Program-made: the position numbers and the translations under genes
Shown: piece by piece, positions 419 through 61,206 of the stretch
Layout of the letters: each line of letters starts with the position of its first letter
Position numbering within the stretch: the stretch's first letter is position 1
The notes under the pieces: generated by a model
Database searches by the model: none
Seen by the model: only the letters and a program-made list of their open reading frames with translations
What the model was told of the DNA's origin: nothing
Assembly (NCBI GenBank): GCA_963763045.1
Contig: CAVXNL010000019.1
Span: forward strand, 29,788-93,787
Direction of reading: 5' to 3'
Source of the DNA: an uncultured Planctomycetaceae bacterium
GTDB taxonomy: Bacteria; Planctomycetota; Planctomycetia; Gemmatales; Gemmataceae
Length of the DNA stretch: 64,000 nucleotides

Positions 419-1295
<877 letters not shown>

Positions 1296-18123: not shown

Positions 18124-18135
18124 TCAGGACTCTTT

Positions 18136-18466: not shown

Positions 18467-18518
18467 TACCCTCTCCCCCTCAGGGGGAGAGGGTAGGGTG
18501 AGGGGGGAATCCGAGGCG
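18467..18518. repeat. shorter G-rich perfect palindrome (related element C)
   Basis: CCCCCTCACCCTACCCTCTCCCCCTCA / TGAGGGGGAGAGGGTAGGGTGAGGGGGG. Confidence 0.7.
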
Positions 18519-33200: not shown

Positions 33201-33607
33201 ACATTCGCCTCGCCACCGCTGAGCATGATGGCCGGCTGCGTCTCGTCCGCGCTCAGCGCGATGCCCTGCTCGCGCGCCTGAACGCACGCACGGGCCCATC
33301 GGCGGTAGGTGTGGCGATGCTTGGCGGCAGCGTCTTCTTCCGCGCCGGCCAGGAGGAGGTCGCCGGCATGACGGGGCGAGCCAATTTCCGCCTCTATTGG
33401 GAGGCCGTGGTGGACACGCTGAAGGACCGCCAAAAGATCCTGCTCGACGCCGACAAAATGCCGGAGCTGAGCAGTTTATGGCTGATGCGGCTGCTGCCGT
33501 TCGATTCGCTGCGCATGCCGTTCTCGACACGGCCGCCGGTGCTTCCGCCGGAAGCTGCCGTGAGACGAAAAGGGAGGCTCATTCCATGCGTAAGCTCTTC
33601 TGGCTGA
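30257..33607 (+). CDS. P1B-type heavy-metal-translocating ATPase (CPC motif, no N-terminal HMA domain) fused in frame to an HflK-like SPFH/band-7 domain; frameshifts near 30530, 30670 and 33195
   Basis: TM N-terminus (ORF 30257-30541), the actuator TGESLPVDK, CPCALILATP, DKTGTLTEG, MVGDGINDAPALARADVGLAL and the final TM ...LAVLLNAMRLL. The same uninterrupted 853-aa ORF then runs, with no stop, into a TM (VTTVLLGLAFACYTLSGL) and an SPFH domain (VNADEVALVRRFGKP...HWCWPWPIDAV...GVHLDGVSLHDLHPPQDVVASYHSV). The HflK C-terminus (RLYWEAVVDTLKDRQKILLDADKMPELSSLWLMRLLPFD) ends at 33607. Confidence 0.7.
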
Positions 33608-44821: not shown

Positions 44822-45714
44822 CTATTGTCTCTGTCCCATCGGGAGTGTCAACCCCCTGGATGGAAATCGGAAGGGTGGCAGCGCGTTACGGTGGGAGACA
44901 GTACGGGCCGACTGTCGAAGTTGGAAGGGCGAGTGCGAATTACTCCTTGACGCGGTTCTGCGAACCAGCGCGTAGACAGCGTCGTTCATCTTGTGGAGCA
45001 CCTCCGTCGCCGTCTCACGCACGTCGGCGTCCGGATCGTCGAGGCGGCGGCGGACAAGAGCCAGAGCGTTACGGCCGCCGAGCTTGCCGAGGATCGTGAC
45101 GACGTGGCGGCGCACTCCCGCGTCGGTGTGGTGCAGCGCTTCCATGAGTCGCGGCAGCGCCACCAGACCTACACGCACCAGGGCGGCGGCGGCGACGACG
45201 CGGTTCTTGACGTCGTCCTCTCCCAGAGCCACGATCAGGGCTGGCACGGCGGCGGGAGCGGCGGGACCAAGCTCCCTGATCGCAGCCGCGGCGCAGCGGC
45301 GCACCAGGCCACTGGCGTCGTGCAGTGCCTGGATGAGGGCCGGCACCGCCACGCTGGCGTCGGATGCCACCTCGCCCAGGGCCACGACTGCGTGGCGGCG
45401 CACGACTTCGTCGGTATCCTTGACGCAGCGGCTCAACGCTTCGACGGCGGACCCTGCCTCCGGGCCGATCTCGCCGAGAGCCGCGGCGGCCACCCGCCGA
45501 ACCTGCGCATAGCGATCGGTGAGCAACTCTGACAATTCCTGCACAGCGTCGCGCGCCGTGGGCCGATCGAGGCGAGGACCGTCGCAGCGTGCAGCCGGCG
45601 ATTCGGATCGCCATCCTTGAGGCGGTCGATCCACAGCCGCAAGTTCGGCTCCGGGTTGGCGGTCAAGACAATGGCCAAGGCTGATCCCTCAACAGCATGA
45701 ACGCAGAGCGACAC
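44822..45714 (-). CDS. HEAT-repeat (PBS-lyase-like) protein; frameshift near 45500
   Basis: Repeated VRRxAAxALGEIG / VPALIxAL units. The N-terminus is in ORF 45433-45714 (MSLCVHAVEGSALAIVLTANPEPNLRLWIDRLKDGDPNRRLHAATVLASIGP). Confidence 0.6.
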
Positions 45715-45770
45715 TGAATGGGTGATGTGGGACTGTCATCTTCACTCTAACTTCTATCTTGAGTCGATGT

Positions 45771-45786
45771 CGGCAAAATTGCCGAT
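45771..45786. promoter_or_regulatory. perfect 16-bp palindrome TCGGCAAAATTGCCGA in the AT-rich region upstream of the HEAT-repeat gene, with a downstream half-site repeat ACGGCAAAAT at 45805
   Basis: Operator-like dyad 57 nt upstream of the minus-strand start at 45714. Confidence 0.35.
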
Positions 45787-45860
45787 TCCTGATATTTTCT
45801 GCAACGGCAAAATCAGTTCGGAACGTAAGTAAGTATTGTTCCGAGCACGGATACGACAGG

Positions 45861-45962
45861 GCACCGGAGGGATAACACCGTGGTAGGACGGATTTGCAAT
45901 CCGTCCGGGCTAAAACGGACAGATTGCAAATCCGTCCTACCACGGTGTTATCCCTCCGGTGC
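45861..45962. repeat. long inverted repeat: two ~46-bp arms (1 mismatch) separated by a 10-nt loop
   Basis: GCACCGGAGGGATAACACCGTGGTAGGACGGATTTGCAATCCGTCC ...gggctaaaac... GGACAGATTGCAAATCCGTCCTACCACGGTGTTATCCCTCCGGTGC. It lies between the cytochrome c 3' end at 46176 and the HEAT gene 5' end. Confidence 0.8.
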
Positions 45963-46175
45963 CCCGTTTGAACCAGGCCCAGGAGTAACTTTCCGATGAG
46001 GAGACGATGTCCCGGATCGCCAGCCGTTCCGACCTGCTGGAGCGGCTGATGCGAAAGGGAGCGGAGGGGACTGGGCCGGTGGTGCTGGCCGCGGAGAAAA
46101 CGAAATGACTGGCCCGTTCACGTTTCGCGGGACGGTTGCTACCCGTATCCCACGAAACGCAAACGCCGATAGGAT

Positions 46176-47670
46176 TCACGAGCCGCCGAACAGTTTCAGC
46201 AACTCGCCCAACTCCGTCGTGAGCGGATCCGAACCGGTGGGGGTAGTAGTCTTACGAAACTCGGCCGGACTCTCGAACCCCGGAGGATAGGCCAGTAACT
46301 CGTACACCTTCGCAAACTGTTTCTTCACGTCGTCGCTTTTCACGGCGCCGGGATTCGCCTGGTAGAGCGCCGTCAGACCGTAGACCATTTGCGTCGCCTC
46401 ATCCCAACTGAGCGCTGCGAGTTTCTTTGCATCGACGGCGGCGAGGTCCTTCGTCAGCTTGCCGACCTGTTCCTTGCTCAGGCTCTTACTGCTAAGCGAC
46501 CCCAATTTTTCCAGCGTCGCCTCGACCAGTTTGGCTACTTCTTTTCGATCGGGAGACGGCTTGCTCATCAGCCGGGCCAGCGCGGCGAAATCGGGTGCAT
46601 CGGCTCCCAGACTCTTTGCCAGTGTCGGCAGTCCTGTCGAGAACCACTCGTTGTAAGGCAGCCCACCGGGAACACGCTCCTTGATGTCGCGATAACCGGG
46701 CCGGTACCGGAAATCGCTGTGTGACTCCCGTAAGCTGGCGTGGCAGGCGAAACAGTTGTACTCGGCGAACTCGGGCCAGGGTTTCTGCTCGTCCTTGGCG
46801 CGAAAAGCCAGCAGATCGAGAGACGCCCGGGCCGACTCGGTGCGTCCCGCCGCCCACAGTTTCGCCTCGTAATCGGCCGGATACTTGTCGCGGCGCCAGT
46901 GGGCCGGTAAGTTCGCCTGGAACGTGCTCAACTCGAAGACCAGGCGCGGGTGGCCGGCGGCCATCAGGTCGTGGTTCAGATCGCGGGCCGGCACACCGTT
47001 CTTCGGATCGGCAGGGCGCCGACGTGACAACCGGCACAGACCCGCGCCTGCTCCCGCGGATCGCTCATCATCTTCATGCCCTGCTTGTCGTTGCTCGCCT
47101 TCCACCCTTTCAGTGTGTGCGCCGTCAGCCAGCCCGCCGCTCTCGGGGGCGAGTCCGTGGCAGGCTTCGCAGCCGATGCCTTCGGCTTGCAGCGCCCGCA
47201 TTTTGGCACCGTTCCCGACAGCGAACTCCGGCGTCGTGTGGCAGGCGAGACATTTCGGATCTTCGTAGGCGTTTATTTTCTTGCCGCCGTTCAGCGGGGC
47301 GAGGTTCTGGGCGATGCGATCGGCACGCGGCTCGTGCAGTACCTCGTAAGGCGCGGGTGTGCGGGTCGTGGCGCACCCAAGTCGTGAACTCGTTCTGCTG
47401 CACCCCGTCCTTGTTCGCCGTGAGGGCGCCGTGGCAGCCGCGGCCTGCGCAAGACCCACTGCCGGCGAGACCGTGACCGCGTGCGATAAGCGCAAGGATG
47501 TCCGGGTCCTCACTGACTTCAGCTTTCATATTCATGACGACGGCGCCGGCGTTTGCTCCTTCCGGTGCAGGGGAACGGGCCGAGTTGGCTGTACTCACCA
47601 GCGGATAGATCAGGACGGCGGGCAGCAAGCAGACGGCGAGAGCGGCCGACCTTCGGAGATTGTTCTGCAT
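46176..47670 (-). CDS. multiheme c-type cytochrome (secreted); frameshifts near 47130-47360
   Basis: Signal peptide MQNNLRRSAALAVCLLPAVLIYPLVSTANSA. CxxCH motifs CLACH, CEACH and CFACH lie in ORF 46176-47513, with a further GCHG-type site upstream. Confidence 0.75.
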
Positions 47671-48037
47671 GGGGAGCCTCGGCACCGGAGATGCGAGCCA
47701 GATAGACTTGAGGGAAACGATACCGTCCGCGGGTGTGGTTGGCAACGCCATCCCGCCCGTCGAAGATTATTTTCCGAAAGTTGGTGAATCGAGTCGGCAG
47801 ATCGTTGACAGTCATCCGCGCGAGTGATAGATTTGCCCCCGTTCCTTGGCGTTCGCCAAATACTGCGTGAAGCGGCTCTCCTAACTCTTAGGGGATGCCG
47901 TAGCGGCGAGGCGCTCTCGACCAGTCAGGTATCGGCGGTGCGCTGCGCGGAGGTTGCACAGTATTCCCCTCGGGCATGGGAGTCCCTTGTTGTGCTGATC
48001 GATCGCTCGACTTTATCCCAGCACTTGCCGTGGGTCG

Positions 48038-48958
48038 TTGCCAGCGTCGCTGCTGGCTGCGCTCGCCAGTGTCTGGTACTTCGTCGCCAGCGCCAGTGTC
48101 GCAACCTGGCCGGGGGGCAGTAGCTTCCCCGGGTTCACCTTCGGCGTTCTCGGCGGTCTGATCTGCCTGTTCGAGTTCCTGCTCTGGCCGCGCAAGAAGT
48201 TCCGCGCCTGGCGTATCGGCCGGACGCAACACTGGATGCGGGCGCACATCTGGCTCGGACTGCTCGCCGTGCCGCTGCTGATCTATCACAGCGGCTTCCG
48301 CTGGGGCGGTTCGCTCAGCACCATCCTTATGGTGCTGTTCCTTGTGGTGATCGCCAGCGGCGTCTGGGGCCTGGTATTGCAGCAGTTCCTTCCCAGCAAG
48401 ATGCTCATGGAAGTCCCGGCCGAGACGATCTATTCGCAGATCCCGCGTATCTCCGGCATCATGGCGATGGAAGCCGAACGCCTCGTCCTGGCGACCTGCG
48501 GCGGCGAAGGCAACGTGACGCCGACAGATCAAGAAGAAATCGGCGATGTCGGCGTCGCACACATGGTGATCGGCAAGGTGCGGCATGTCGGCGGCGTCCA
48601 GGGCGTGGTGCTCGAAACGTTGGCGCCATCGCAGCCGATCACAAACACCGAGTTCCTCGCCAACGCCTTCCGCGACACCATCCGCAATTACCTGATGCAG
48701 GGGGCCAAATCCGGCTCGATTCTGGCCACGGCGCCGCGGGCCGTCGACTATTTCCGCACCGTCCGCGAGCGGATCAACCCGGATGCGCTTTCGGTCGTCT
48801 CCCACCTCGAAGGGTTGTGCGACCAGCGCCGCCAGTTCGACGCCCAGGAGCGGATGCACTTCTGGCTGCACAACTGGCTGTTCGTGCATCTGCCGCTATC
48901 GGTGGCCCTGATTCTGTTGATGTTCGTGCATGTGTACGTGACGCTTAAATACTGGTGA
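48038..48958 (+). CDS. integral membrane protein (4-6 TM) of unknown function, between the two cytochrome c genes; possibly a b-type-haem or quinone-interacting partner
   Basis: Hydrophobic segments LAALASVWYFVASASV, VLGGLICLFEFLLW, IWLGLLAVPLLIYH, TILMVLFLVVIASGVWGLVL, LFVHLPLSVALILLMFVHVYV, plus conserved His/Trp. Confidence 0.45.
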   Translation: MPASLLAALASVWYFVASASVATWPGGSSFPGFTFGVLGGLICLFEFLLWPRKKFRAWRIGRTQHWMRAHIWLGLLAVPLLIYHSGFRWGGSLSTILMVLFLVVIASGVWGLVLQQFLPSKMLMEVPAETIYSQIPRISGIMAMEAERLVLATCGGEGNVTPTDQEEIGDVGVAHMVIGKVRHVGGVQGVVLETLAPSQPITNTEFLANAFRDTIRNYLMQGAKSGSILATAPRAVDYFRTVRERINPDALSVVSHLEGLCDQRRQFDAQERMHFWLHNWLFVHLPLSVALILLMFVHVYVTLKYW

Positions 48959-49047
48959 TGTGATGGACACGACGAATAGGTCCTCTCGGGCCTATAAGTC
49001 CTATTCGGCTCCAGCCACAAACCCCCGGCCCCCTTGGAAACGAGCAT

Positions 49048-50545
49048 GGCTAACCAGACCCCAGGCGGCTGCGCCGCTCCAAACCGGTAAGGGACGAGCG
49101 ACTCGGATTCCGCTCGACTACTACAAGACCGCCAACCCTCTGGAAAAAGGCAAACTCGTGCTGGCGGGAGTCGCCGTCCTCGGCACCTGCGTCTGGCTGG
49201 CCCTGGGGTTCGCCACGTCGGACGGCGGCCAGTCGCGCTACTCTCGCGGCCAGGTAGCCAAGGTTCACGAGAAGTGGAACAACGACTGCCAGGCGTGTCA
49301 CGTTCCCTTTTCGCCGATCAGCGAGCAGAGCTTGTTCATGAGCCATCCGTCGCCGGCGGACAAGAACTGTCAGGATTGCCACGCCAAGAACAACCGTGCA
49401 ACCGGCGACCATTACGTAGGCCGCGAACCGGCGTCGAACCAACTCAGGAGTTGTGCAGGCTGTCACCGCGACCATCACGGCGCGGAGGCCGATTACTCGC
49501 TCGTCCGCCTGGCTGACGCCGATTGCGCCTCGTGCCACAAGGACCTGAAGAACCACTACGGTTCGGGTAAGCCCATCGTGTTCGCCAACGACGTCACGTC
49601 GTTCGCCAAACACCCCGAGTTCGGTGCTTATTCGAAGGGGGTGAAAGATCCCGGCAAACTGAAGTTCAACCATAAGCTGCACATGCAGCCCGGCCAGGTT
49701 CCGGCTGACGGCATCGGTGCCTACACCCTCGACAAGATCAAGACGCTCGACCGCGGCGCGATGAGCGCTTCAAGGACGCGGCCTGGCAGACGGACAAAGC
49801 GGACACGGCGGCCGTCCAGCTCGATTGCGCCGCGTGTCACGTGCCGACGAAACCGGTTGAACAGGGGGCCTCCACGGCGACGGCGGGCCGTTACATGCAG
49901 CCGATCAAGTACGACGCCCATTGCAAGGCGTGCCATCCGCTGACGTTCGACACCGACAAGGAAGCTCTACCGCATGGTCAACCACTGGCCAAAATCGACA
50001 TCTTGCTCGAAGCGGCGTACAAGGACTACAAGCCCTCGCCGGCCAAGCCGAGTTCACGGCCGCTGCTCTCGAAACCACTCGCCAGCCCCGAACAGATGCG
50101 GACAACTGCGGATCTCGTCAAGGAAGCAAAGCGGTACATCGAGGGAACCCGGGCGGGTTGCGTCGAATGCCACTTCATCGAGGTCCGAGAAGGTAAAAAA
50201 GAGATCGAACCGGTGCATGTTCCGGAGGTGTGGTTCAAACATGCCAAATTCAGTCATCTTGCCCACCCGTCGACGGTAGCCAAGTGCATTGACTGTCACG
50301 GGAAGGCCAAAGAATCCACCGATCATGCCGACGTGCTGATTCCTGACCTCAAGAGCTGCCAGACCTGTCACGCGCCGGAAAAGTCGGAGGGCGGTAGAAA
50401 GATTGGCGGCGCCCGCCATGACTGCACGGCCTGCCATGTGTTCCATCACAATGAGCAGGTGAAACCCGGTGTCGTCGGGCTGGACGCCGATCCGCGGACC
50501 GCGCTGGAGTGGCGCTTGTTGCTGCCGAGTAAATCGAGGAAGTGA
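49048..50545 (+). CDS. membrane-anchored deca-haem c-type cytochrome; frameshifts near 49070 and 49800
   Basis: An N-terminal TM anchor (LVLAGVAVLGTCVWLALGFA), then CxxCH sites: CQACH, CQDCH, CAGCH, CASCH, CAACH, CKACH, CVECH, CIDCH, CQTCH, CTACH. Confidence 0.75.
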
Positions 50546-50718
50546 GCATCGTCCGCCGCTTGCGGCTTAGCGAGGAGCCGCCTTTAAGCAGTGGTTTCAA
50601 AATCTTGTACCGCCGACATTCCTGTCGGCACGGGCCGGCAAGAATGCCGACGGTACGAGGTTTTTTCACCGCGTCTAGGCCGCAAGCGGCGGACAGGATC
50701 TCAGCGAGTGACTATCTC

Positions 50719-51090
50719 ATGATCGTACAAGAACTTCGCCACATCCAGGAACGCTGCGGCTGGCTGCCCAAGGAAGAGATGCGGGCACTGTCGGAACGGC
50801 TGAAAGTGCCGCTGCACCGCTTGCACGAAGTGGCCAGCTTCTATCCGCTCTATCGTCTTGAACCGCCGCCGACCGTCGAGGTGCACGTTTGCCGCGACAT
50901 GGCCTGCCACATCAACGGCGCCGCGCAGCTGACGAGAACCTCGAAGCCTACGGCAAGGAGCTCGGAGGCGAAGAAGGTCAAGGTCTGCGGCGTCTCCTGC
51001 CTCGGCCAGTGCGACAAGCCCGTCGCTGTCATCGTCAACGAGCATCACGTCTACCGCGGCCTCTCCGAAGACGGAGATCAAGCGTACTGA
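50719..51090 (+). CDS. NuoE/HoxE-like thioredoxin-fold [2Fe-2S] subunit; frameshifted
   Basis: MIVQELRHIQERCGWLPKEEMRALSERLKVPLHRLHEVASFYPLY...VHVCRDMACHINGA, then after a shift ...VKVCGVSCLGQCDKPVAVIVNEHHV. Confidence 0.7.
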   Translation: MIVQELRHIQERCGWLPKEEMRALSERLKVPLHRLHEVASFYPLYRLEPPPTVEVHVCRDMACHINGAAQLTRTSKPTARSSEAKKVKVCGVSCLGQCDKPVAVIVNEHHVYRGLSEDGDQAY

Positions 51091-52444
51091 TGCGCACCGC
51101 CCTGAAGAAGGAGCCGCTGCCGCACGAACACGTCGATTCCGCTCCGCTCGGCTGGAAGATCGATCCCTACAAGGGCAAGCCGCAATACGACGCGCTGAAG
51201 CAATACATCGCCGAGAACAAGAACGCTCTCGCGCTCATCAAGAAGCTGGAAGTGTCCAGCCTCCGCGGCATGGGCGGCGCCGGCTTCCCGACGTTCCGCA
51301 AGTGGTCGGCGGTGCGCGGCGCCCCGGCGACGAAAAGTACGTCGTCTGCAACGCCGACGAGAGCGAGCCGGGCACGTTCAAGGATCGCGAGCTGCTGCGG
51401 CGGACGCCGTGGCTGGTCATCGAGGGCATGATCCTGGCCGGCCTCGTCGTCGGGGCCAAGCAGGGCTGGATCTACATCCGCCACGAGTATCCCGACGAGG
51501 AACGAGGCCGTCGAGAAGGCGCTGCACGAGGCCCGCGAGATGGGCGTCCTGCGGCGACAACGTCCTCGGCTCCGGGCATGCCGTTCCAGCTCGAAATCTT
51601 CATCAGTCCCGGCGGCTATGTCCAGGGCGAAGAAAGCGCGCTGCTGGAGGCGATGGAGGATCGCCGCGGCGAGCCGCGCAACAAGCCGCCGTTTCCGGTG
51701 TTCAACGGCCTGTACAACAAGCCGACCGTCATCAACAACGTCGAGACGCTGAGCTGGGTGCCGGGCATCGTGCTGAACGGCGGCGAATGGTATCGCGAAC
51801 CAGGGCATCAACGGCGAACCCGGCATGCGCTTCTGTCTCGGTCAGCGGCGACGTGGTCAAGCCGGGCGTCTACGAGGTGCCGTTCGGCCTGAAGGTGCGG
51901 GAGCTGATCTTCGAACCGGAATACTGCGGCGGCATGCGGCCGGGACGCAGGTTCAAGGCGATCGCGCCGTCCGGGCCGTCCGGCGGCTTCTTGCCGGCGA
52001 TGATCAAGCTGACCAATCTGCCGCCGAAGTTCGTGCAGGACCGCCTCAATAAGCGAAGACGTTGCCTTCGCCTTTCTCGACTTGCCGCTCGGCCTGAACA
52101 CGTTCGACGAGTTCGGCGGCATGCTCGGAGCCGCTCTCATCGTCTACGACGACACGCCGCGACATCGTCGAGAACGCGCTCAATTGCGTCGAGTTCTACC
52201 GCAACGAGTCGTGCGGCAAGTGCGTCCCCTGCCGGACCGGCTCGCAGAAGCTGGTCGAGCTGATCGGCCAGATGATGGACCAGCAAGTTCCCGCGCGACC
52301 CAGCTGCCGCTGGTCGGCGAGCTGGCCGACACGATGTGTATCGCGTCGATCTGCGGCCTGGGCCAGGTGGCATCGAACCCGATCGCCTCGGTGCTGAAGC
52401 ACTTCCCCGAGGAGCTGGATAAGTATATGCGCAACGGCGCGTGA
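51089..52444 (+). CDS. NuoF/HoxF-like NAD(H)- and FMN-binding [4Fe-4S] flavoprotein subunit; at least 4 frameshifts
   Basis: SSLRGMGGAGFPTFRKW, YVVCNADESEPGTFKDRELL, GAKQGWIYIRHEYP, QGEESALLEAMEDRRGEPRNKPPFP, TVINNVETLSWVP, VSVSGDVVKPGVYEVPFG, NESCGKCVPCRTG. The ATG overlaps the NuoE-like stop (TGATG). Confidence 0.8.
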
Positions 52445-52447
52445 ACT

Positions 52448-52511
52448 CGTTTAGCCGCGAGCTGTTTGCGAGCGCTGAGCCTCGGCGCTCGCAAAAGCTC
52501 GCGGCTAAACG
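52448..52511. repeat. perfect 64-nt palindromic stem-loop in the 92-nt gap between the nuoF-like stop and the next gene's ATG
   Basis: CGTTTAGCCGCGAGCTGTTTGCGAGCGC...GCGCTCGCAAAAGCTCGCGGCTAAACG, nested inverted repeats. Confidence 0.8.
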
Positions 52512-52536
52512 AAAGACCTCATTGTCGAGACTTCTC

Positions 52537-54912
52537 ATGAGTCCTGCTGACAATAACGAACCGCTGGTCATGGAAGGCCATTATGTCGAGCTGGAAAAGA
52601 CCGTCGTCGATCTGCTCAAGGAGCCGCCGGTCAAGGTCACCATCGACGGCAAATCCATCGAGATCCCGCGCACCACGCTCGTCGAGAACCCGGTGACCGG
52701 CAAGGTCGAGCCGAAGCCGACGACCATCTACGACGCCGCCCTCAAGCTCGACATCAAGATCCCGATCCTGTGCCACCGCGAGCACATGACCCCCGTCGCC
52801 GCCTGCCGTTTCTGCACCGTCGATGCCGGCGGCCGGGTGCTGACGGCCGCCTGTCACCGGCAGGTCGAGCCGAACATGGTCGTCCACACCGGCAACGCCG
52901 ACACGCCGCAGGGCAAGCGCGTCCGGAACACGATCAAGGTGCTGACCGAGCTGCTGCTCGCCGATCACGAAGTGCCGCGCGAGGCACATAAGGAGTACGG
53001 CGACAACGAGCTGCGCACCATCGCCAAGAACCTCGGCCTCAATCCGTACTCCTCGCGCTTCCCCAAGTCCGGGCGCGACCGCGGTCAGACGAGTCGTCGC
53101 TCGTCATCGCCGTCGATCACAACGCCTGCATCCTGTGCGACCGCTGCATCCGCGGCTGCAACGAAGTGCGCAACAACCAGGTCCTGGGCCGGATGGGCAA
53201 GGGGTACAAGGCGCACATCGCCTTCGACCTCAACGACCCGATGGGCCAATCGAGCTGCGTCTCGTGCGGCGAGTGCATGATCTCCTGCCCGACCGGGGCA
53301 CTGACGAATCGGAAGTTCGTCGGCGCCGATCCGTGGGCCGCCGTGCGCAGACAAGGTTCAGTCGGTCAATCCCGCGGACCTCTACAAGAACCCGCTGTTC
53401 GAGGGCGTATCGCGCCAGTTCCTCGAGTTCAACAAGGGCTCCGTGGTCCGGCGCACGTTCAAGACCGGCGACATCATCTGCCGCGAAGGCACGGCCGGCT
53501 CGACTGCGTTCCTCATCGAAAAGGGCAAGGTGGAGATCCGCATCACGTCGCCGATCAAGCACGCCAAGGCGCAGAAGATCGGCGTCCGCGGCATCTTCCG
53601 CAAGTTTGCCAGTGCCCTCGTCGGCCGCGGCGAGGACTCGCGCGATGAGGAGAGCCGGTCGTCGTTCATCCACATCGACGGCCCCGTGTCGCTGAAGTAC
53701 TCCGATCCCGTCGCCGAGCTGGACGAAGACGACCTGATCTTCGGCGAAATGACGTGCATGAACAACTACCCGCGGTCGGCAACGGTCGTGGCCAAGACCG
53801 ATGTGACCGTGCTGGAAGTGCTGCGCAACGTCCTCTACATCTTGCAGCGCAACAAGAAGTCGAAGGCGAAGCTCGACGCCGTCTACCGCCGGCGCTCGAT
53901 CGACAACCATCTCCGTAGCGTGCCGATCTTCGCCGACCTGCAACAGGATGAGACGCAGTTCAAGCGCTTCATCGACTTCTTCCGCGAGCGTGTCCAGCTG
54001 GTGCGGCTGGCACCGGGTGAGACGATCTTCCGCCAGGGCGACAGGGCCGACGCCTTCTTCATGGTGCGCGTCGGCTTCGTGAAGGTGTCGCAGAATCAGT
54101 CAGGCGGCGAGCAGGTGCTGGCTTACATCGGCCCCGGCGGCTATTTCGGCGAGATCGGTCTGATGGCCGACGACGCCGACGTAAGCCGGCTGGCCCCCGC
54201 CGGCGTCCGCACCGCAACCTGCACGGCCCTGGACCACGTGGACATTGTGCGCATGAAGGCGTCGGACTTCCGCCAGATCCTGACGGACTTCCCAGCCGTC
54301 GCCGACAAGATCAAGTCGCGGGCGATCGAGATCCTGAAGAAAAACGAGGCGACCCGCGAGCGCGTGCAGAAGGTGCCGCTCGGCGAGTTCGTTCGCCAGG
54401 GCTTGCAGGAGGCGACGTATCTGCTGGTGCTCGACCTGGAGAAATGCACGCGCTGCGACGAATGCACCAAGGCCTGTGCCGACACCCACGATGGCGTGAC
54501 ACGGCTGATCCGCGAGGGTTTGCGGTTCGACAACTACCTGGTGGCGTCGTCGTGCCGGTCGTGTCTCGATCCGTACTGCATGGTCGGCTGCCCGGTCGGC
54601 TCGATCCGCCGCCGCCAGTCGCGCGAGATCATCATCGAGGACTGGTGCATCGGCTGCGGCAAGTGCGCCGAGAATTGCCCTTACGGCAACATCAACATGC
54701 ACCCGTTCCCGACGAACCAGCTGATGGACGATCCGAACAAGCCAGGCTTCAAAGTGCCGGTGGTGCAGCAAAAGGCGACGCTGTGCGACCAGTGCAGCGA
54801 GCTGGACGGCCAGCCGAGCTGCGTCTACGCCTGCCCGCACGACGCGGCGCATCGCATGTCGGGCAAGCAGCTGATCGGGATCGTGGAGAAGCGGGCGGCG
54901 GCGATGAAGTGA
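52537..54912 (+). CDS. multidomain redox/sensor protein: NuoG/HydA-N-terminal-like ferredoxin module ([2Fe-2S] + His-ligated and 2x [4Fe-4S]) + two cyclic-nucleotide-binding (CAP) domains + C-terminal poly-ferredoxin (4x CxxCxxCxxxCP); frameshifts near 53090 and 53350
   Basis: VKVTIDGKSIEIP...ILCHREHMTPVAACRFCTV...TIKVLTELLLADH, then after a shift NACILCDRCIRGCNEVRNNQVLGRMGKGYKAHIAF...SCVSCGECMISCPTGAL. CAP domain 1 follows (LYKNPLFEGVSRQFLEFNKGSVVRRTFKTGDIICREGTAGSTAFLIEKGKVEI), then CAP domain 2 (VRLAPGETIFRQGDRADAFFMVRVGFVKVS...YIGPGGYFGEIGL). The C-terminus has CTRCDECTKAC, CRSCLDPYCMVGCP, CIGCGKCAENCP, CDQCSELDGQPSCVYACP. Confidence 0.7.
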
Positions 54913-55079
54913 GAGGCCGGGGGTGAACTGTGATCGTTAGAGAGAACGCCTCCCGCTGTGAGCCGACTCTTGAAGACGGCGGGGTGGCAAAGAAGGTCCG
55001 TTCGTGCGAAGGAATGTTTACGTTTCGCGAGGTGTCTTCCCCGCGAAACGTAAACGAGAAGGGGTTGCACCGACGGGAT

Positions 55080-55487
55080 TTACTCTTTCGGTTTGGTTCG
55101 ATCGATGGTCACCTCATCCACGACCCGCCGAGGGCCTTTATCCGAGAAGTGGATTTGCACATTGGCGCCTTCATATTGCTTGAAGTCAGCCGCCAGAACC
55201 TCGCTGGTTTTGATCTTCCCGTCGATAGCCGTTTCTTGAACTTTCAGTTTGACGTCCTTTCCAATAACAAGAGGCGGATAAATACTGCCTTCCACATCGG
55301 ACAAGTAGAGGGATTTATTATCCGTGGCAATGCGATCCAATGTGCCCATGACTGGCCCGTTGTTGGTCTCGGGAGCCACAAGAGCGTTGGCGGAATGAGT
55401 CGCCGGTTTCGTGTTATTGACCGTCACGTCGCAGCCCGTGGCCACCATGGTGAGGACGGCGATGCAGATGATAAGTAGACGCGACAT
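55080..55487 (-). CDS. small lipoprotein (hypothetical)
   Basis: MSRLLIICIAVLTMVATGC is a lipobox. The mature protein is Lys/Thr-rich and 135 aa. Confidence 0.5.
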   Translation of the reverse strand: MSRLLIICIAVLTMVATGCDVTVNNTKPATHSANALVAPETNNGPVMGTLDRIATDNKSLYLSDVEGSIYPPLVIGKDVKLKVQETAIDGKIKTSEVLAADFKQYEGANVQIHFSDKGPRRVVDEVTIDRTKPKE

Positions 55488-55585
55488 GATGGTATACCTC
55501 CCTTGGAGTGGTGCTCTCTATCATTCTACGGCACTGGTGGTGTCCGAGTGTCACTTGTCAGAAAAAAAACACCACGGAGATGCGC

Positions 55586-57728
55586 TCAGACTTGGGGGGC
55601 CGGGTAGTGTACGTGCAGCCAGTCGGTCACTTCGGCGTCTCCTTGCGCGAGTCGCTCAAGCAGGCCGCCAGGAGGGACACCCGTGGGTACGAAACAGAAT
55701 ACGGTCAGGAGGCAGAGAATTAGCATACGGGCTGTTTCTGGGCCACCCTCCACGAAGACTTGCGTGGACAGCTGTACCGCGAACTGACCGAGATGCGCGA
55801 ACTGAGCCGCAGTCAGAATCCCGTTCGGGAATTGTCCCTCCAGCATCACGGTCATCTCAATCAGGTTTTGTCGCCCCGCAGGCGTGAACCCTGTGGGGCG
55901 AGGTGCATCGTGTCGCAAGATCCGATGATTACACGCAACGGCCCACTCGGCCAGTTGCTCGGCAGTCAGCGTCATCGCTGGACCGCGCCAGCCTGTGCCT
56001 CCTTCGGCCTTTTCACGATGCCGTTCGAGAATCTGCCGTACTTCTTCGGCCACTGCCCTGCGATAGACCTCATCGGTGTCGTAGCGGCGTAACCGACGTA
56101 ACACGGCGTCACGCTTCCCTTCCGGCGGCGGTTGCTGGCGATTTTCGCCGTCCGAACCGTGCAGGACTTCGTAGAGCGGGCCGTGCCGCAGGTGATTCCA
56201 GAACAGCTCTTCCACATCGATTCGGTTGGCATTCGCCAAATTCTCCGGCAGCTGGCTGCACAGTAATCTGCCGATGTGAAAGCCGAGTTGCCGGTAGGAT
56301 TCGACCATGTCCGGATCGTAAAACTGATTGACCGTCGGATCGTGCGGGAACGGTTGCCGGTGATGGAAATGACGCAGCAGATCATTCTCTTCGTCCTTAG
56401 TCAGCGACGGCTTGAGGTAGATGATGTAACCCTCCTTGCAGGTGCGCGGTTGAACTCCGTCCGGCATGTAGTCATCGGGATAAAGCACGCGGCCGATGAA
56501 GAAATGGTAGCGGCAAGTGTCATCTTCCTTGACACTCAACGGCTGGAGGTCGATCGGCCGTTTGTCGTGGAGGTCGAGGACCTCGACACCGTGGAAGAGG
56601 CGTACCCGGCGGCACACCTTCAGAAAATCCTCGAACGAGTGTCTGGGATCTTCGCCGGCATCGGAAACGACGATGAGCTTGCAGCGGCGTTGCAACAGTG
56701 CCCAGAGGCCGAGGTTTTCGCTGTGGCCGCCGTCCGTGACCAGGCACCAGGCGCGATCCTCGGCATCGAAGAGCAGGTGATCGGCCAGAAGCATCGGCAA
56801 CGTGGGCCAGGGTAGGATCTGTACGTGGCGCCAAATCCACGACATCCACGAATGTTTGCCGGCGCTGGGATTGAGCAACCACTGGCCGAGCCGCATATTG
56901 AACACCGCGAGCAGCACACCCCATGCACCCTTGACCTGTGATGGGCTGACGGCGGCGCCTGAGATGGCGGTAACCTCGGCGAGATCATCGCGTCCATGAA
57001 ACCACCTTCTCAGCCACTTCCATCGACTCAAGTACGGCGCCGTCGGCACACACTGGGTGACGGAGGAACCGCAGTAGAGCGGCGAAAACAGGAACGGCCA
57101 GGAACGATCCTCGCTGCGGGAGTCGCCCAAGAGGTTGAGCGTACCGGAGAAGAGGGGATACGGTTCGCTCCCCCGCCTCGGCGCGTCCAGTTCGGAGAGG
57201 CGAATGAATCGGCCCTGCCCGGTTCTGGGTTCGACGTACTGTTCTGCGCAGCCGGTCGCGATAGAAGCCGTGCATGGCCGTCCAGTTTACGTTGACCAAG
57301 CCGATGAGGAGGCACACCCAGAACGAGCCACAGAGGATACGCAGACGAACGTACTGATCTTCCTCGGCCAATGTCGTCCGCTGGCCGATACCTCCGAGCC
57401 ATTGCAACGTTTCCCCCGGCGTGAGACGATCGTCAATCCACTCGGGGAGTTTTTCGGTCACGGCCTGGTCGATCGGCTTACTGGCGCGGACGATGTTCTG
57501 CCGATTGGCGGCAACGAGACCGAGATGGCGCGGCCTACCATATTCCGGAAGGAGGGAAAGTTCGAGTGCAAAGCGGTCCAAGTCGCCCGGGAGGGCTTCG
57601 TTTGAAACCAGGCTTAGCCACAGGGCATTAGCGGAATTGTCCGGCCAGCATTTTAATAGCAATCGATTCACTCCCTTCATGGCGGCTGGGGTTTCTTCCC
57701 AACGCGGTAGGAGCGTGAAGGCGGCGCC
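55586..57728 (-). CDS. 3' portion of a large membrane patatin-like phospholipase gene (contains the DGG catalytic-Asp motif), separated from its 5' portion by an IS insertion; internal frameshift near 57000-57130
   Basis: LVTDGGHSENLGLWALLQRRCKLIVVSDAGEDP matches the patatin D-G-G block. The reading frame is open on the minus strand from the IS boundary (…GAAFTLLPRWEETPAAMKGVNR…) with no stop. Confidence 0.55.
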
Positions 57729-59398
57729 GGTACTACCCTCAAGTTTACCCGGAACATTCTACCATCGCGTGACAGGAGGTCTGTGTCTCTACGTGATTGT
57801 ATTTTTTTCCACCGCAGCGCCGTGACGCCCCCTGGGCATAAGCTGGCGAACCTTTGCGGCTGTGCCCGCAGCTTTCCGAGCCTCTGTACTCTGGTAGTTT
57901 TTGCAATCACGTACCAGACCACCGCACCGCTCTTGACCACACGACCATCCTGAAAGTGACGGCAGGGTTGCACTGGTCACGAGGGCACGGTCATGACGAC
58001 AGACGCACGGTTCGGCGAACATAACTTCGGCGCGGCCTTTCTGGGACACAAACGGCGCACCGATTGTCTGGTGCGCATCGCACACCAGATTTACCGTCAT
58101 CCCGGCGGGACCTTGCCCGCCAAGCTGCACGAGCCCAAGGATTACAAGGCGATGGACCGGCTCATGAACCGCCCCGAGGTGACGCACGCCGCCGTGCTGG
58201 AGCCGCACCGCCAGCGGACCCTGCAACAGATGCGTCTGGCTCCCGGCGTGGTCCTGGTGTTGCATGACACCACCGAACTCGACTACTCGGGGCTGCGTTC
58301 GATCCCCGACCTGGGTCCGATCGGCGGCGGCCTCAACCGTGGCTACTTGTGCCACAACAGCCTGGCTTTCGACCCGCAGCGACACGAAGTCCTCGGTCTG
58401 GCCAACCAAATCCTGCATCGGCGCCGCCACGTCGGTCGCCACGAAAAAGTGCGGGCCAAACGCGAACGCCGCGATCGCGAAAGCCGGTTGTGGATCGACG
58501 GCGTCGCCGCGGTCGGCCCCGCTCCGGACGGCTGCACCTGGGTGCATGTCGCGGATCGCGGCGCCGACACCTTCGAGTTTCTCGCCCGCTCCTGGGGGCC
58601 ACACGAAGGGTTCGTGATGCGTTCCAAGGTCAACCGCGTGATCCGCCACGGCCACCATGACCCGCAGGGTCCCAAAGACTATCTGCACACCTATGCACGC
58701 ACGCTGCCGCTGCAGGGACACCGGGAAATCGTCGTGTCGGCACGGCCGGGCCAGCCCGAACGCAAGGCGGTCGTCGCCGTGTCGTTCGCGCCGGTGTTGC
58801 TCAGTCCGCCGCACGTGCGTCGCGGCTTGTATGAGAAGCGGCCGCTGCCGCTGTGGGTCGTGCGCGTGGCCGAAATCAAGCCGCCCAAGGGCGTCGCGCC
58901 GGTGGAGTGGATCCTGCTGACCGACCGCAAGGTGGGCACGCTGGCGGACGCCTGGGAACGGGTGGATTGGTACGGCGACCGCTGGATCATTGAGGAATTG
59001 CACAAGGCGCAAAAGAGCGGTTGCGCCATCGAAGATCTGCAGTTCACTACGTCGGCGGCCCTGCAACCGATGATCGCGCTGCTGTCGGTGGTGGCGGTGG
59101 CGTTGCTGAACCTGCGCGAAGCCAGTCGGCGACCGGATGCCAAGGAGCGGCCAGCGACGGAGGTGGTGGATGCACGCTACGTGGCCGTGCTGAGTGCGTG
59201 GCGTTACAAAGAGGTACGGCCGGAGTTGAGCATCCATGACTTCTTCTATGCTTTGGCGCGCCTGGGTGGCCATCAGAACCGCAAACGCGACCATCGCCCC
59301 GGCTGGCTGATCCTGTGGCGCGGCTGGATGGCCTTGCAACACATGGTCGATGGTGCGGAAGCTCTGAAAAGTTGTGGGTAAACTTGAGGGTACTACCC
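57729..59398 (+). mobile_element. IS4-family insertion sequence (~1.67 kb) with 22-bp imperfect terminal inverted repeats
   Basis: IRL GGTACTACCCTCAAGTTTACCC (57729-57750) and IRR GGGTAAACTTGAGGGTACTACC (59376-59397) match 21 of 22. A single intact DDE transposase ORF lies inside, and the IRR overlaps its stop codon. Confidence 0.85.
57993..59381 (+). CDS. IS4-family DDE transposase (462 aa, intact)
   Basis: VLHDTTELDYSG (D1), WVHVADRGADTFEF (D2), YGDRWIIEELHKAQKSGC (E / YREK-like region), typical of the IS4 family. Confidence 0.85.
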   Translation: MTTDARFGEHNFGAAFLGHKRRTDCLVRIAHQIYRHPGGTLPAKLHEPKDYKAMDRLMNRPEVTHAAVLEPHRQRTLQQMRLAPGVVLVLHDTTELDYSGLRSIPDLGPIGGGLNRGYLCHNSLAFDPQRHEVLGLANQILHRRRHVGRHEKVRAKRERRDRESRLWIDGVAAVGPAPDGCTWVHVADRGADTFEFLARSWGPHEGFVMRSKVNRVIRHGHHDPQGPKDYLHTYARTLPLQGHREIVVSARPGQPERKAVVAVSFAPVLLSPPHVRRGLYEKRPLPLWVVRVAEIKPPKGVAPVEWILLTDRKVGTLADAWERVDWYGDRWIIEELHKAQKSGCAIEDLQFTTSAALQPMIALLSVVAVALLNLREASRRPDAKERPATEVVDARYVAVLSAWRYKEVRPELSIHDFFYALARLGGHQNRKRDHRPGWLILWRGWMALQHMVDGAEALKSCG

Positions 59399-61086
59399 CA
59401 CAGCTCCATCAGCTGTTTTTGCGTCGGTTCGACAGAAGCCACCAACGCCGCCGCTGCCCAGACTGATCCCTGGACACCTGGCAAGCCCACCATCCCCGCG
59501 CTGCCTGCAACCCATTCCGGTTGGACCTGAGGCTCTCGCGCCTTGACGAAGCGAACTTCGATGGCAACGAGTTGAGGATCCATCAAGGATTGCTGGGTCG
59601 CGACCGCGTTGCCGAACAGGCGATCCATGACGTTCCCCGCATAGCCACGGGCGCTCAGTTCTTTCTCAACCTCTTTGCGGCTGTAGAGACGCACGGCCTG
59701 CACCTGGGGCGGCCGCTCTCTGGACCAGTTCGTTTTCACCTTGATGAGCTTTCCTTGCGCTGCTCGACCGGAGACATTTTCGCGCGCCAATTTGTACAGA
59801 ACGAAGAGAGGGACCCCGATCAGGACGATGGCGCCGACAAAGTTCAGGGCCTTGCCCCATTGGGCCGAGGAGGCCTGATTCGTCCTGTCGTTGCGTGAGG
59901 GCCGCAGCACCGGCCAGATGCCGAAGACGAGGAGAAGGCCGACAACAATCGCGATCGAGCCGTACACTACGGAGCGCAGCATGCTGCCGATCCAATCGAG
60001 ATCCAGGCTGGCGTTTTGCCGCGATGTGGGATCGTAAATGAGTAGCGCGTCGGGAACGCAATGGCGCAGCGGTCCGATGGAGATGTCGCCGTTGCCCAGG
60101 AGGACAATTACGCTGACCACAAGCGAGACGCCACAGATTGTCCGACTGGAATGGAACCACCGCCGTGGCAATCGTAGTTTCTTCTCGTCGGCTGGCCCTA
60201 CCTTTTTTTCGACGCGGCGCAGCCATCTCCAGGTCGTCAACCAGAATAAAGCCGGCACAAGGCTCGGGAGAAAAGCCCGGAACAGGTCCGACGTCAGAGA
60301 GTGACCCAGGCCGTCTGGCTCGTTCTCGAAAGTGATCCATTCCCGAATCGCCGGTTGGTCGAACAAGCGCCACAGACAAGCGATCAAGGTGCAGAAAAAG
60401 ATCAGGGCAGTACCGACGAGGGCCAGATTGGGCAGCAGGCCGCGCGCATAGTCCAAGACGAAATCCCAGGGACGGGCTAAATAATCTCCGCGGCGAATGA
60501 AGCGACGTACGCGCGGCGGCTGCCGGTCGCCTTCCTGCGGCAGCAGAGGTGCGTTGGGGTCCGTCGGCGACCGGGAGGCCAGGTGAGCCGCCAGGTAACT
60601 GCCGCCCGAGACGGCGGAAAGGTAGTCGAGGTAGCGATAGAGACCGCGGACAAGAAGGGCCTGTACAACACCGAGGTTGAACATCGCCGAGCGAATACCG
60701 CCTCCGGAGAGTGCCAATCCGACCAGATCGCGGCTTACGTCCGCGCCATTCACGCCGGCTCCGAAGGCGGCGATGCGTCGCTGAGCCACCTGCTCACGTT
60801 CCGCTTCGATTACCTCCTCTTCCGAAAGCAGTTCCGGGAAGATGTAGCGATAAAATTTCATCCACACGGCCGCCAGCCATCGCGCGAACTGTTTCACATA
60901 CGTGAATGCCAGGAAAAGGAAAATGAGCCCAATCAGTAAGTAGCAGCAGGAGCCCAACGGCCACCAGACTTGCGCGAACATTACGGTAGCCTCGCGGATT
61001 GGATTTGGCTCTTGGTTGATCGCAAGTGATCTGCGTGAGAAGACGTACCTGCTTGCACATTTCAACGTACCATTCGTCATCCCCAT
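59399..61086 (-). CDS. 5' portion (~562 aa) of the membrane patatin-like phospholipase: N-terminal TM, GGGxRS oxyanion motif and G-x-S-x-G-like nucleophile motif, multiple further TM helices; truncated by the IS
   Basis: LALSGGGIRSAMFNLGVVQALL...YLSAVSGGSYLAAHLAS matches the patatin block. The real sequence ends ...ASVEPTQKQLMELW exactly at the IS right end, and the track ORF then reads through the IS antisense. Confidence 0.6.
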
Positions 61087-61206
61087 GTCAACGAAAAAGC
61101 CGCGACCGTTATCCTCTCGCCGCCGTCGCGGTTCTCTCTCTGGAAACCCCGCACGTCTTCCCCGTACAATCCCTCTGGGTTTCCACTACGGCACACGAGG
61201 CCAGTC

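Follow-up and report, generated by a model that had tools for sequence, protein, structure and literature searches.

A candidate NADH-linked multihaem cytochrome module with cyclic-nucleotide-binding domains in Planctomycetota and Acidobacteriota

A cluster of five genes located at positions 46176-54912 of a 64,000-nt window of DNA from an uncultured planctomycete (contig CAVXNL010000019.1, 29,788 to 93,787) was analysed by domain, homology and synteny searches. All coordinates are positions of this window unless a related locus (L followed by a number) is named. The cluster encodes a NuoE-NuoF fusion, a large protein in which Fe-S modules are combined with two cyclic nucleotide monophosphate (cNMP)-binding domains, a membrane protein and two multihaem c-type cytochromes. 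The original prediction, which was made from the sequence of the window, had described a soluble NAD(H) diaphorase delivering electrons to multihaem cytochromes. According to the present analysis the region appears to encode a membrane-bound NADH-oxidising electron-export complex, a reading to which a probability of roughly 0.55 is given.

Gene content and reading frames of the window copy

Domains were assigned by a Pfam scan of the open reading frame (ORF) fragments of the window. The region has a G+C content of about 63% and contains the features given below; the Ptd names refer to an operon of marine bacteria to which the cluster is compared further on.

46176-47670, minus strand: pentahaem c554-like cytochrome c (Pfam, tblastn, frameshift-aware alignment)
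47671-47988, no strand: divergent intergenic region of about 320 nt with two sigma-70-like promoter matches inside
47989-48958, plus strand: five-helix membrane protein (about 322 aa), PtdF-like and a probable di-haem cytochrome b
48960-50545, plus strand: decahaem cytochrome c with N-terminal membrane anchor, PtdG-like
50719-52444, plus strand: NuoE-NuoF fusion (Pfam, tblastn, frameshift-aware alignment)
52537-54912, plus strand: large fusion protein, whole gene
52537-53340, plus strand: N-terminal module of the large fusion protein, NuoG/HoxU/FdhA-N-like (Pfam Fer2_4, Fer4)
53356-54330, plus strand: two cNMP-binding (CAP/PKA-type) domains of the large fusion protein (Pfam cNMP_binding)
54400-54912, plus strand: C-terminal HycB/NrfC-type ferredoxin of the large fusion protein (Pfam Fer4_7, Fer4_9, Fer4_11)

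Every element listed by the original prediction was recovered at the position assigned to it, including the polytopic membrane protein upstream on the same strand and the divergent multihaem cytochrome, and all domains that it named (NuoE, NuoF, Fer2_4, cNMP_binding and poly-ferredoxin) were confirmed with Pfam. It had also noticed frameshifts, which are indeed present, but their number is far above what it implied. Frameshift-aware protein-to-DNA alignment revealed about 20 one- or two-base indels over the 8.7 kb of the cluster: about 10 in nuoEF, 3 in the fusion gene, 1-5 in the c554-like gene, 1-3 in the decahaem gene and 1 in the membrane gene. When intact homologues were used as tblastn queries, nuoEF was broken over three frames and the c554-like, decahaem and fusion genes were also split, the c554-like gene at about 47346 with the homologue from L001. 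The indel of the membrane gene is located near 48064 and the ORF 48038-48958 is intact, while the decahaem gene has one clear frameshift near 49789. Comparison of the fusion gene with the intact, 85.5%-identical contig L085 placed a deletion (-1) at 53088 and an insertion (+1) at 53350, between which 262 nt are out of frame.

The indels are most likely sequencing or assembly errors. The alternative that the frameshifts are real, that the cluster is a decaying array of pseudogenes in the present genome and that the module is not made there is considered unlikely, though it carries real weight. It is suggested by the sheer density of the damage, with 10 indels within the 1.7 kb of nuoEF, by its patchy distribution (several other genes of the window, 1-2.6 kb in length, are intact), by the position of many indels outside homopolymers and by a transposase-like ORF 3 kb downstream. 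Errors are nevertheless favoured, since the five reconstructed proteins contain no in-frame stop codon (0 despite about 20 indels), since identity to relatives is not lowered in the most damaged gene (63% for the reconstructed nuoEF protein, compared with that of L001, vs 61% for the fusion protein), since frame switches and split domains also occur elsewhere in the window, and since the contigs of the closest relatives, one of which has a name resembling that of a long-read assembly, are fragmented as well. Three +1 insertions inside 90 nt that restore the reading frame also speak against decay. Homopolymer slippage was considered as the cause of the indels and fits only partly, as several of them are insertions of an unrelated base.

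Outside the cluster, overlapping same-strand ORFs in different frames were found at 4561-6077 (minus), 16680-21245 (plus), 9469-10906 (minus) and 33229-34520 (plus). Among them are a PQQ_2 beta-propeller split over two frames and a Ser/Thr kinase whose downstream TPR repeats lie in other frames, and they look like further frameshifts.

Proteins of the cluster and their predicted cofactors

The NuoE domain (PF01257, E = 1.9e-23) and the NuoF domain (PF01512, E = 7.5e-30, plus SLBB) were described by the original prediction as products of two genes with a TGATG overlap. In 71 of 79 relatives both domains form a single ORF of 557-590 aa, in a relative of about 80% identity one called gene likewise holds both, and in the window an indel was located at the NuoE/NuoF junction (about 51074) by frameshift-aware alignment. 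The overlap is therefore an artefact, and nuoEF is treated here as one fused gene. Based on its domains the protein is expected to carry a thioredoxin-like [2Fe-2S] cluster, an FMN/NADH site and an N3 [4Fe-4S] site. Across 71 full-length homologues, conservation is at least 90% for the motifs G-x-GGA-x-F-x-T-x2-KW, NADESEPGT-x-KDR, ESCGKCVPCR...SICGLG and C-x4-C...C-x3-C, and the same FMN, NADH, N3 and N1a motifs are present in the reconstruction of the window gene, which has no internal stop. Three of them were located as follows.

51267-51305, plus strand: FMN motif of nuoEF
51350-51388, plus strand: NADH motif of nuoEF
52206-52244, plus strand: N3 Cys motif of nuoEF

The best solved relative is the beta subunit, likewise with E and F fused, of the tungsten formate dehydrogenase (W-FDH) of Methylorubrum (M. 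extorquens; 7e5z_B, E = 1.1e-100). The intact L001 homologue scores below the NCBIfam cut-offs, with 410.8 bits against 558.65 for nuoF_fam and 78.9 against 142.4 for nuoE_fam. The protein ends about 40 residues past the N3 motif and its domains are limited to 2Fe-2S_thioredx, Complex1_51K, SLBB and NADH_4Fe-4S. An electron-bifurcating Bfu-type enzyme (HydB/NfnB) was rejected because the NuoF-like protein lacks additional C-terminal ferredoxin domains.

More than 100 full-length homologues, about 780 aa in length, share the architecture of the large fusion protein. Conservation of at least 90% was found for 28 Cys of the protein. Its N-terminal module resembles the Fe-S modules of FDH alpha, HydA, HoxU and NuoG, and the family profile of this module matches residues 81-288 of FDH alpha 7vw6_A (E = 1.9e-43) as well as HydA N-termini. 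Invariant Cys are found in one [2Fe-2S] and two [4Fe-4S] motifs, which are listed together with the remaining motifs of the protein.

52768-52815, plus strand: [2Fe-2S] motif, N-terminal module
53127-53159, plus strand: first [4Fe-4S] motif, N-terminal module
53256-53291, plus strand: second [4Fe-4S] motif, N-terminal module
53740-53787, plus strand: phosphate-binding cassette 1, FGEMTCMNNYPRSATV, with the same spacing as in PKA
54142-54231, plus strand: phosphate-binding cassette 2, YFGEIGLM...VRTATC, with a 10-residue insert
54445-54477, plus strand: first Cys motif of the C-terminal ferredoxin
54820-54855, plus strand: last Cys motif of the C-terminal ferredoxin

The His-ligated N5 site is missing from the window protein, in which, as in its close relatives, the Cys are gone (ADHEVPREAHKEYGDNELR, 52930-53000). 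Some relatives keep a His and two Cys at this position (ADHPxPCxKHxxxxDCELE, columns ~340-370 of alignment A1).

The cNMP-binding domains claimed by the original prediction as CAP domains are present (PF00027 cNMP_binding, E = 7.1e-34) and contain the canonical phosphate-binding cassette. The G-E and R-[ST]-A residues of the cassettes are invariant or at least 90% conserved; in cassette 2, G, E and R are invariant and T is nearly so (at least 90%). The family profile of this part matches the PKA regulatory subunit 3of1_A (E = 3.5e-18). A transcription regulator of the CRP/FNR type was rejected, as Pfam detected no helix-turn-helix (HTH) family in the window protein or in its homologues. The C-terminal ferredoxin contains 16 Cys, all of them invariant and with the spacing of the family, enough for four [4Fe-4S] clusters. 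Its best solved relatives are HycB3 of HDCR (7qv7_A, E = 1.9e-13), HycB of FHL, ArrB, FdnH and NrfC. Modules of the HycB/NrfC type act as electron wires and normally dock directly on a membrane partner. Signal peptides were detected neither in nuoEF nor in the fusion protein.

Two variants of the fusion gene were observed among the relatives. The Isosphaeraceae protein P0084 (987 aa, L003:10001-12964) has an additional N-terminal extension of about 200 residues, consisting of repeats that are similar to the first strand region of the protein ('V/IRLVVDGxxVxVP...'). On the short contig L085 the gene upstream of the fusion gene (43-873, plus strand) encodes a 276-aa protein without Pfam hit and is not nuoEF; either the local order differs there or L085 is a second copy in another context.

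For the membrane protein 1243 homologues were found, all of them unnamed. Five transmembrane (TM) helices are predicted, with a domain of about 150 aa between TM4 and TM5 that would be cytoplasmic by the positive-inside rule. Five His are invariant in 26 sequences, including the pairs H70/H84 and H284/H298, each with a distance of 14 residues and located in two helices; these four residues are at least 90% conserved in 70 sequences. The positive-inside rule predicts one His pair near each membrane face. The codons are located as follows.

48245, plus strand: codon of H70
48287, plus strand: codon of H84
48887, plus strand: codon of H284
48929, plus strand: codon of H298

Since two pairs of TM His on two helices, with a spacing of 13-14 residues, are a signature of the di-haem membrane cytochrome b superfamily (DUF4405, Ni_hydr_CYTB, Ferric_reduct), the membrane protein is a probable di-haem cytochrome b. 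Weak and recurrent, though sub-threshold, Pfam matches point to DUF4405, the most frequent one (22 of 26 members), and to prokaryotic cytochrome b561 (Ni_hydr_CYTB). A structure search with the protein yielded nothing specific. Binding of haem b via four conserved His has been demonstrated experimentally for DUF4405 (PMC11334425).

The decahaem cytochrome is matched by Pfam Cytochrome_C7 and Paired_CXXCH. The membrane-anchored deca-haem protein of the original prediction was confirmed by the anchor and by 10 CxxCH in the window reconstruction, a number shared by 65 of 66 homologues. NCBIfam matches to QrcA, DmsE-type and GSU2203-type decahaems are weak and all far below cut-off. Ahead of the anchor the N-terminus contains the cytoplasmic motif A-x-R-I-x3-Y ('RIPLDYYK' in the window, 48960-49140). 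Conservation of this motif reaches at least 90% across the two phyla, and a partner in the cytoplasm may make contact here. The divergent cytochrome belongs to PF13435 Cytochrome_C554 (E = 8.9e-8) and is pentahaem, with 4 CxxCH and 1 CxxxxCH in 58 of 58 homologues; it has an N-terminal signal peptide (MQNNLRRSAALAVCLLPAVLIYPLVSTANSA). Attachment of c-type haem takes place in the periplasm.

Conservation of the gene set and relation to known systems

Loci of the NuoEF-coupled form were collected by a scan of one genome per species, which yielded at least 578 of them. The best 80 loci, from which the taxonomy was taken, belong to two phyla, Planctomycetota and Acidobacteriota. Carriers were found in the Gemmataceae, the Isosphaeraceae and the Pirellulales among the Planctomycetota and in the Terriglobia, Bryobacterales, Acidiferrales and Vicinamibacterales among the Acidobacteriota. 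The complete set is present in a cultured member of the Isosphaeraceae, Tautonia sociabilis GM2012 (locus L024).

Synteny was analysed by tblastn of the five proteins over 83 loci. All five genes are found together in about 65 of the 83, that is, wherever the flank suffices. In Planctomycetota the c554-like gene on the minus strand is followed by the genes for the membrane protein, the decahaem cytochrome, nuoEF and the fusion protein, and in Acidobacteriota by nuoEF, the fusion protein, the membrane protein and the decahaem cytochrome. Median intergenic gaps are 5-10 nt, and the genes flanking the cluster vary between loci. As the gene pairs have been shuffled as blocks and yet are adjacent in both phyla, there is strong evidence that the five-gene set is a functional unit. 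The original prediction had pointed out that the arrangement in the window could be coincidental if orthologues in relatives were never adjacent; with the adjacency found here in two phyla, and with the rearrangement at the level of modules, chance is ruled out. In the loci L020, L029, L031 and L064 of Pirellulales/Planctomycetaceae the c554-like gene is not upstream and divergent but follows the fusion gene on the same strand. L020 contains two tandem c554-like copies (12425-15537, plus strand).

Genes for class III adenylate/guanylate cyclases, some with GAF domains, adjoin the cluster in 11 acidobacterial and 2 planctomycete loci of three separate lineages. The window contains none. The positions within the loci are:

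L035-L079, about 14500-16500: cyclase genes of the 11 acidobacterial loci
L003, 1557-3467 and 13898-16558: cyclase genes
L030, 4002-6140: cyclase gene

Annotation of the components is limited to "hypothetical" or "cyclic nucleotide-binding domain-containing protein" throughout. In the full-text literature no description of the NuoEF-coupled cluster was found, and one preprint names a related operon. This operon, ptdABCDEFG, was described for Alphaproteobacteria of marine oxygen-deficient zones (Elbon et al., bioRxiv 10.1101/2023.11.21.568154) and comprises a pentahaem cytochrome (PtdA), a porin (PtdB), an oxidoreductase that binds FAD/NAD(P) (PtdC), a tetrahaem cytochrome (PtdD), a cNMP-binding-domain protein with 4Fe-4S clusters (PtdE), a ferric-reductase-like membrane protein (PtdF) and a decahaem cytochrome (PtdG). 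It was also found in nitrite oxidisers, which need reverse electron flow, and according to its authors the function "remains completely unknown" (bioRxiv 10.1101/2023.11.21.568154). A 2026 preprint on acidobacterial gene clusters for extracellular electron transfer (EET) deals with outer-membrane porin-cytochrome systems, and the present module is absent from it.

A link between both groups of genes is provided by a shorter type of locus. When the cNMP and poly-ferredoxin part of the window protein was used as query, about 800 clusters (50% identity) were retrieved at E <= 1e-30, and many of these represent complete proteins of 490-585 aa without the NuoG-like N-terminus. In four such loci (L086-L089) homologues of the membrane protein and of the decahaem cytochrome, the latter with 10 CxxCH, come after the short cNMP/4x[4Fe-4S] protein, and NuoEF and the NuoG-like N-terminus are missing. 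Compared with the L001 set, E-values were 3e-20 to 2e-61 for the membrane protein and 2e-14 to 6e-42 for the decahaem cytochrome. A c554-like cytochrome is present in three of the four loci. The membrane protein of L086 has a faint Ferric_reduct match and the c554-like protein of this locus contains four haem motifs, which agrees with the descriptions of PtdF and PtdD. The divergent genes of L088 encode a c554-like cytochrome and a flavoprotein of the NDH-2-like kind that carries a cNMP domain. This flavoprotein (L088:6755-8374, minus strand) consists of Pyr_redox_2, NDH2_C and a C-terminal cNMP domain that is 33-39% identical to the second one of the fusion proteins. Genes for chemotaxis proteins, a kinase and GAF proteins are neighbours of the cluster in L087.

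From these comparisons the conserved core consists of the cNMP/4x[4Fe-4S] protein together with the probable di-haem membrane protein, the decahaem cytochrome and usually a c554-like cytochrome. The front ends on this core are NuoEF with the NuoG-like adaptor in the family of the window, an NDH-2-like protein, PtdC, or none nearby; three NAD(P)H-type input modules on one core argue for NAD(P)H as donor. In the window the same core layout was found, with the cNMP/4Fe-4S protein beside the membrane protein and the decahaem cytochrome and with a c554-like cytochrome in addition. PtdE is similar to the C-terminal two-thirds of the window fusion protein, PtdF to the membrane protein, PtdG to the decahaem cytochrome and the tetra- or pentahaem cytochromes of the c554 type to the c554-like protein, and in both cases an NAD(P)H-type oxidoreductase lies beside the core. 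The likeness rests on short-type loci that have the layout of the ptd core and are homologous to the window proteins, while ptd itself was matched by its published descriptions. Judged from this, the core of the module corresponds to the named, uncharacterised ptd core PtdD-E-F-G.

The full PtdA-G set is not present in the window, where no extra genes lie inside or beside the cluster. A porin (PtdB) and a beta-sandwich pentahaem cytochrome of the PtdA type were not found in the window family, no dedicated beta-barrel search having been run. Moreover, the NAD(P)H module of the window is a NuoE-NuoF fusion and not a FAD/NAD(P)-binding protein of the PtdC type, and its PtdE-like protein has gained the NuoG/HoxU-like N-terminus with three more Fe-S clusters. 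Hosts of the window family are soil and freshwater Planctomycetota and Acidobacteriota, in contrast to the saline-habitat taxa that carry ptd.

The original prediction had stated that the arrangement is neither complex I nor a hydrogenase or formate dehydrogenase, which is borne out by the absence of the catalytic domains and by sub-threshold family scores. Its further statement that the cluster could not be mapped to a characterised system still holds, but the core does match the ptd operon, which is named although uncharacterised. With complex I the module shares the NADH/FMN site, the N1a-type [2Fe-2S], N3, the N1b-type [2Fe-2S] and two [4Fe-4S] motifs. It differs in that E and F are fused, that the C-terminal domain of NuoG and the N5 motif are missing, and that a quinone module and antiporter-like pumping subunits are lacking. 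Complex I was rejected on these grounds, as no quinone-module or membrane-arm nuo genes occur in the cluster or in the related loci.

An NAD-dependent formate dehydrogenase and an NAD-linked hydrogenase were rejected as well; Pfam scans of the ORFs of the window and of more than 100 full-length homologues detected no hydrogenase, H-cluster, NiFe or molybdopterin domains. FoDH1 of M. extorquens (PDB 7e5z, 7vw6; Fds type) is similar in that its beta subunit is also a NuoE-NuoF fusion and that the N-terminal Fe-S module of its alpha subunit is the best match to the N-terminus of the window fusion protein. The logic NAD(H) <-> FMN <-> Fe-S chain is common to FoDH1, HoxEFU and HydABC. In contrast to these enzymes, the window protein has two cNMP domains and a HycB-type four-cluster module in place of the molybdopterin or hydrogenase domain, its partners are a membrane protein and c-type cytochromes, and the NuoF-like part scores below the NCBIfam cut-offs.

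In Tmc/Hmc of Desulfovibrio and CbcL/Cbc of Geobacter, which are transmembrane redox complexes of sulfate and metal reducers, a membrane b cytochrome links periplasmic multihaem cytochromes c with an Fe-S protein on the cytoplasmic side; in CbcL a nine-haem c domain is joined to a di-haem b domain that is HydC/FdnI-like. The working principle is common to these systems and the window module. By sequence the module does not belong to them: the membrane protein of the window is not NarI- or HydC-like at the family level. A further difference is that the cytoplasmic partner is an NADH dehydrogenase and not HdrD-like. Domains of the cNMP type are not known from Tmc, Hmc or CbcL systems. A comparison can also be made with the flavinylation-associated cytochromes of the DUF4405, MsrQ and PepSY-like types, for which electron transfer across the cytoplasmic membrane has been proposed (PMC11334425). 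DUF4405 and the window protein have the four conserved TM His in common. The window protein differs in that its hits stay below threshold, by five helices and the cytoplasmic insert of about 150 aa vs six helices, and by the absence of ApbE or a flavinylated partner, its partners being the Fe-S protein and c-type cytochromes.

The genes flanking the cluster on both sides are unrelated according to the Pfam scan (HEAT repeats, WD40-like, transposase-like ORF, patatin, MqnC-like radical SAM), in agreement with the boundaries that had been proposed for the unit. The following additional features were recorded.

47745-47717, minus strand: sigma-70-like promoter match (consensus match)
47805-47833, plus strand: sigma-70-like promoter match (consensus match)
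57993-59381, plus strand: ORF 3 kb downstream of the cluster, with transposase DNA-binding domain (PF14706) and overlapped by long antisense ORFs
61039-62346, plus strand: radical SAM protein with CofH/MqnC C-terminal region

The two promoter matches are the only ones across 46000-55600 (9.6 kb), where 1.3 +/- 1.1 were expected, and both are located in the divergent gap; as consensus matches they are weak evidence. No Rfam family reached the gathering score in 45500-55800, and a terminator scan of the region gave no signal above the shuffled expectation. The radical SAM protein is probably a menaquinone biosynthesis enzyme of the futalosine pathway and would imply a menaquinone-using organism.

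Proposed electron path and alternative readings

In the reading favoured here, NADH would be oxidised at the FMN of the cytoplasmic NuoE-NuoF fusion and electrons would pass via the N3 [4Fe-4S] cluster to the large fusion protein, which they would enter at its NuoG/HoxU-like N-terminal module with one [2Fe-2S] and two [4Fe-4S] clusters. They would then travel past or through the two cNMP domains to the four-cluster ferredoxin module of the HycB/NrfC type, whose docking site would be the cytoplasmic domain of the membrane protein. Through two bis-histidine b haems of this five-helix protein, one close to either membrane face, the electrons would cross to the membrane-anchored periplasmic decahaem cytochrome, from where they may reach the secreted pentahaem c554-like cytochrome and finally a periplasmic or extracellular acceptor. 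Binding of cyclic nucleotides would gate or tune the Fe-S wire. Physical assembly, activity, direction of flow, independence of quinones, cNMP binding and the terminal acceptor are all inferred from sequence and synteny in this scheme.

An NADH-oxidising flavoprotein with an Fe-S wire that feeds periplasmic multihaem cytochromes, as put forward by the original prediction, thus seems to be the most economical reading of the cluster. Contrary to what had been proposed, the diaphorase is probably not soluble, since the C-terminus of the HycB/NrfC type most likely docks on the membrane protein encoded upstream; as a di-haem b protein the latter would supply the membrane-crossing step that was absent from the earlier model. 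Outward flow is suggested by the placement of the NADH module in the cytoplasm and of the c-type cytochromes in the periplasm, by the lack of any pumping or bifurcating subunit, and by energetics: the transfer from NADH (-320 mV) to c-type haems is downhill, and outward movement of electrons is favoured by the membrane potential. Control of the module by cyclic nucleotides is suggested by the canonical cassettes, by the cNMP domain on the NDH-2-like front end and by the adjacent class III cyclases.

Several observations weigh against an NADH-oxidising export complex of this kind. Two of the short-type loci have no NAD(P)H module nearby, and the donor may not always be NAD(P)H. Five loci hold nuoEF and the fusion gene without membrane or cytochrome genes within 10 kb; the neighbours in these loci are unrelated (PSCyt/DUF1501, alanyl-tRNA synthetase, glutamate dehydrogenase), and partners were not found among them. 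The membrane protein is below the gathering score of every Pfam family and may have a quinone site. Within the fusion protein the two cNMP domains, about 330 residues, separate the N- and C-terminal Fe-S modules, so that the distance for electron transfer is in question. The patchy indels of the window copy, often outside homopolymers, are to be counted here as well.

A division of the cluster into two units that share the quinone pool is regarded as distinctly unlikely. NuoEF and the fusion protein would then form a non-pumping NADH:quinone oxidoreductase, and the membrane protein and the decahaem cytochrome, by way of the same quinone site of the membrane protein or a second one, a CbcL-like quinol:cytochrome c oxidoreductase. 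The loci with only nuoEF and the fusion gene and the two short-type loci without input module would fit such a division. In its favour are also a weak resemblance to Ni_hydr_CYTB (cytochrome b561/HydC/FdnI type), a family of quinone-binding proteins, and the occurrence of a b-type membrane protein together with a multihaem c protein as in Geobacter CbcL. However, operon gaps of 5-10 nt and co-inheritance in two phyla are explained more simply by one complex, a HycB/NrfC-type domain normally docks straight onto its membrane partner, and a quinone-binding motif was not identified, though none is specifically testable.

Very improbable is a redox- and cNMP-sensing device, in which the cNMP/Fe-S protein and its partners would sense and the cytochromes would report the redox state of the periplasm, bulk flow of electrons not being the purpose. 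The central position of the two cNMP domains, the NDH-2-like partner with its own cNMP domain, the cyclases near 13 loci and the chemotaxis, kinase and GAF genes of L087 are in line with such a role. The proteins lack an output domain (HTH, kinase, GGDEF or similar), however, and an NADH-oxidising flavoprotein with at least 9 Fe-S clusters, 2 b haems and 15 c haems would be expensive for sensing, in addition to which the cofactor chain is laid out as in known electron-transfer enzymes. Inward flow from periplasmic or extracellular donors via the multihaem cytochromes to cytoplasmic NAD+ is the least probable alternative: modules of the NuoEF type can in principle run in both directions, as NAD-reducing hydrogenases and formate dehydrogenases show, and ptd occurs in nitrite oxidisers with their reverse electron flow, but a strongly uphill step from c-type haems to NAD+ would be needed, against the membrane potential and with no ion-translocating or bifurcating subunit encoded in the cluster.

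Returning to an electron-export complex, a more specific and decidedly tentative proposal is that the module is a quinone-independent NADH:periplasmic-cytochrome-c oxidoreductase whose Fe-S wire is switched by cAMP or cGMP at the two CAP-type domains, and that the marine ptd system is the same machine with another NAD(P)H front end and an outer-membrane extension. If this is true, Planctomycetota and Acidobacteriota would possess a second-messenger-gated valve for the export of reducing power to periplasmic or extracellular acceptors, and, if the path is right, a route for electrons from NADH to the periplasm that bypasses the quinone pool. An electron wire with built-in cNMP domains would represent an unusual post-translational control of respiration. 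The core of the module has already been named as ptd; the NuoEF-coupled form is new and widespread, with at least 578 species genomes. The comparison provides the ptd operon, to which no function has been assigned, with a testable donor side, namely NAD(P)H via interchangeable front ends, and with Tautonia sociabilis GM2012 a cultured carrier is available in which the module can be tested. Both are dominant phyla of soil and freshwater that prevail in many soils and peats, and their anaerobic or micro-oxic physiology is poorly understood.

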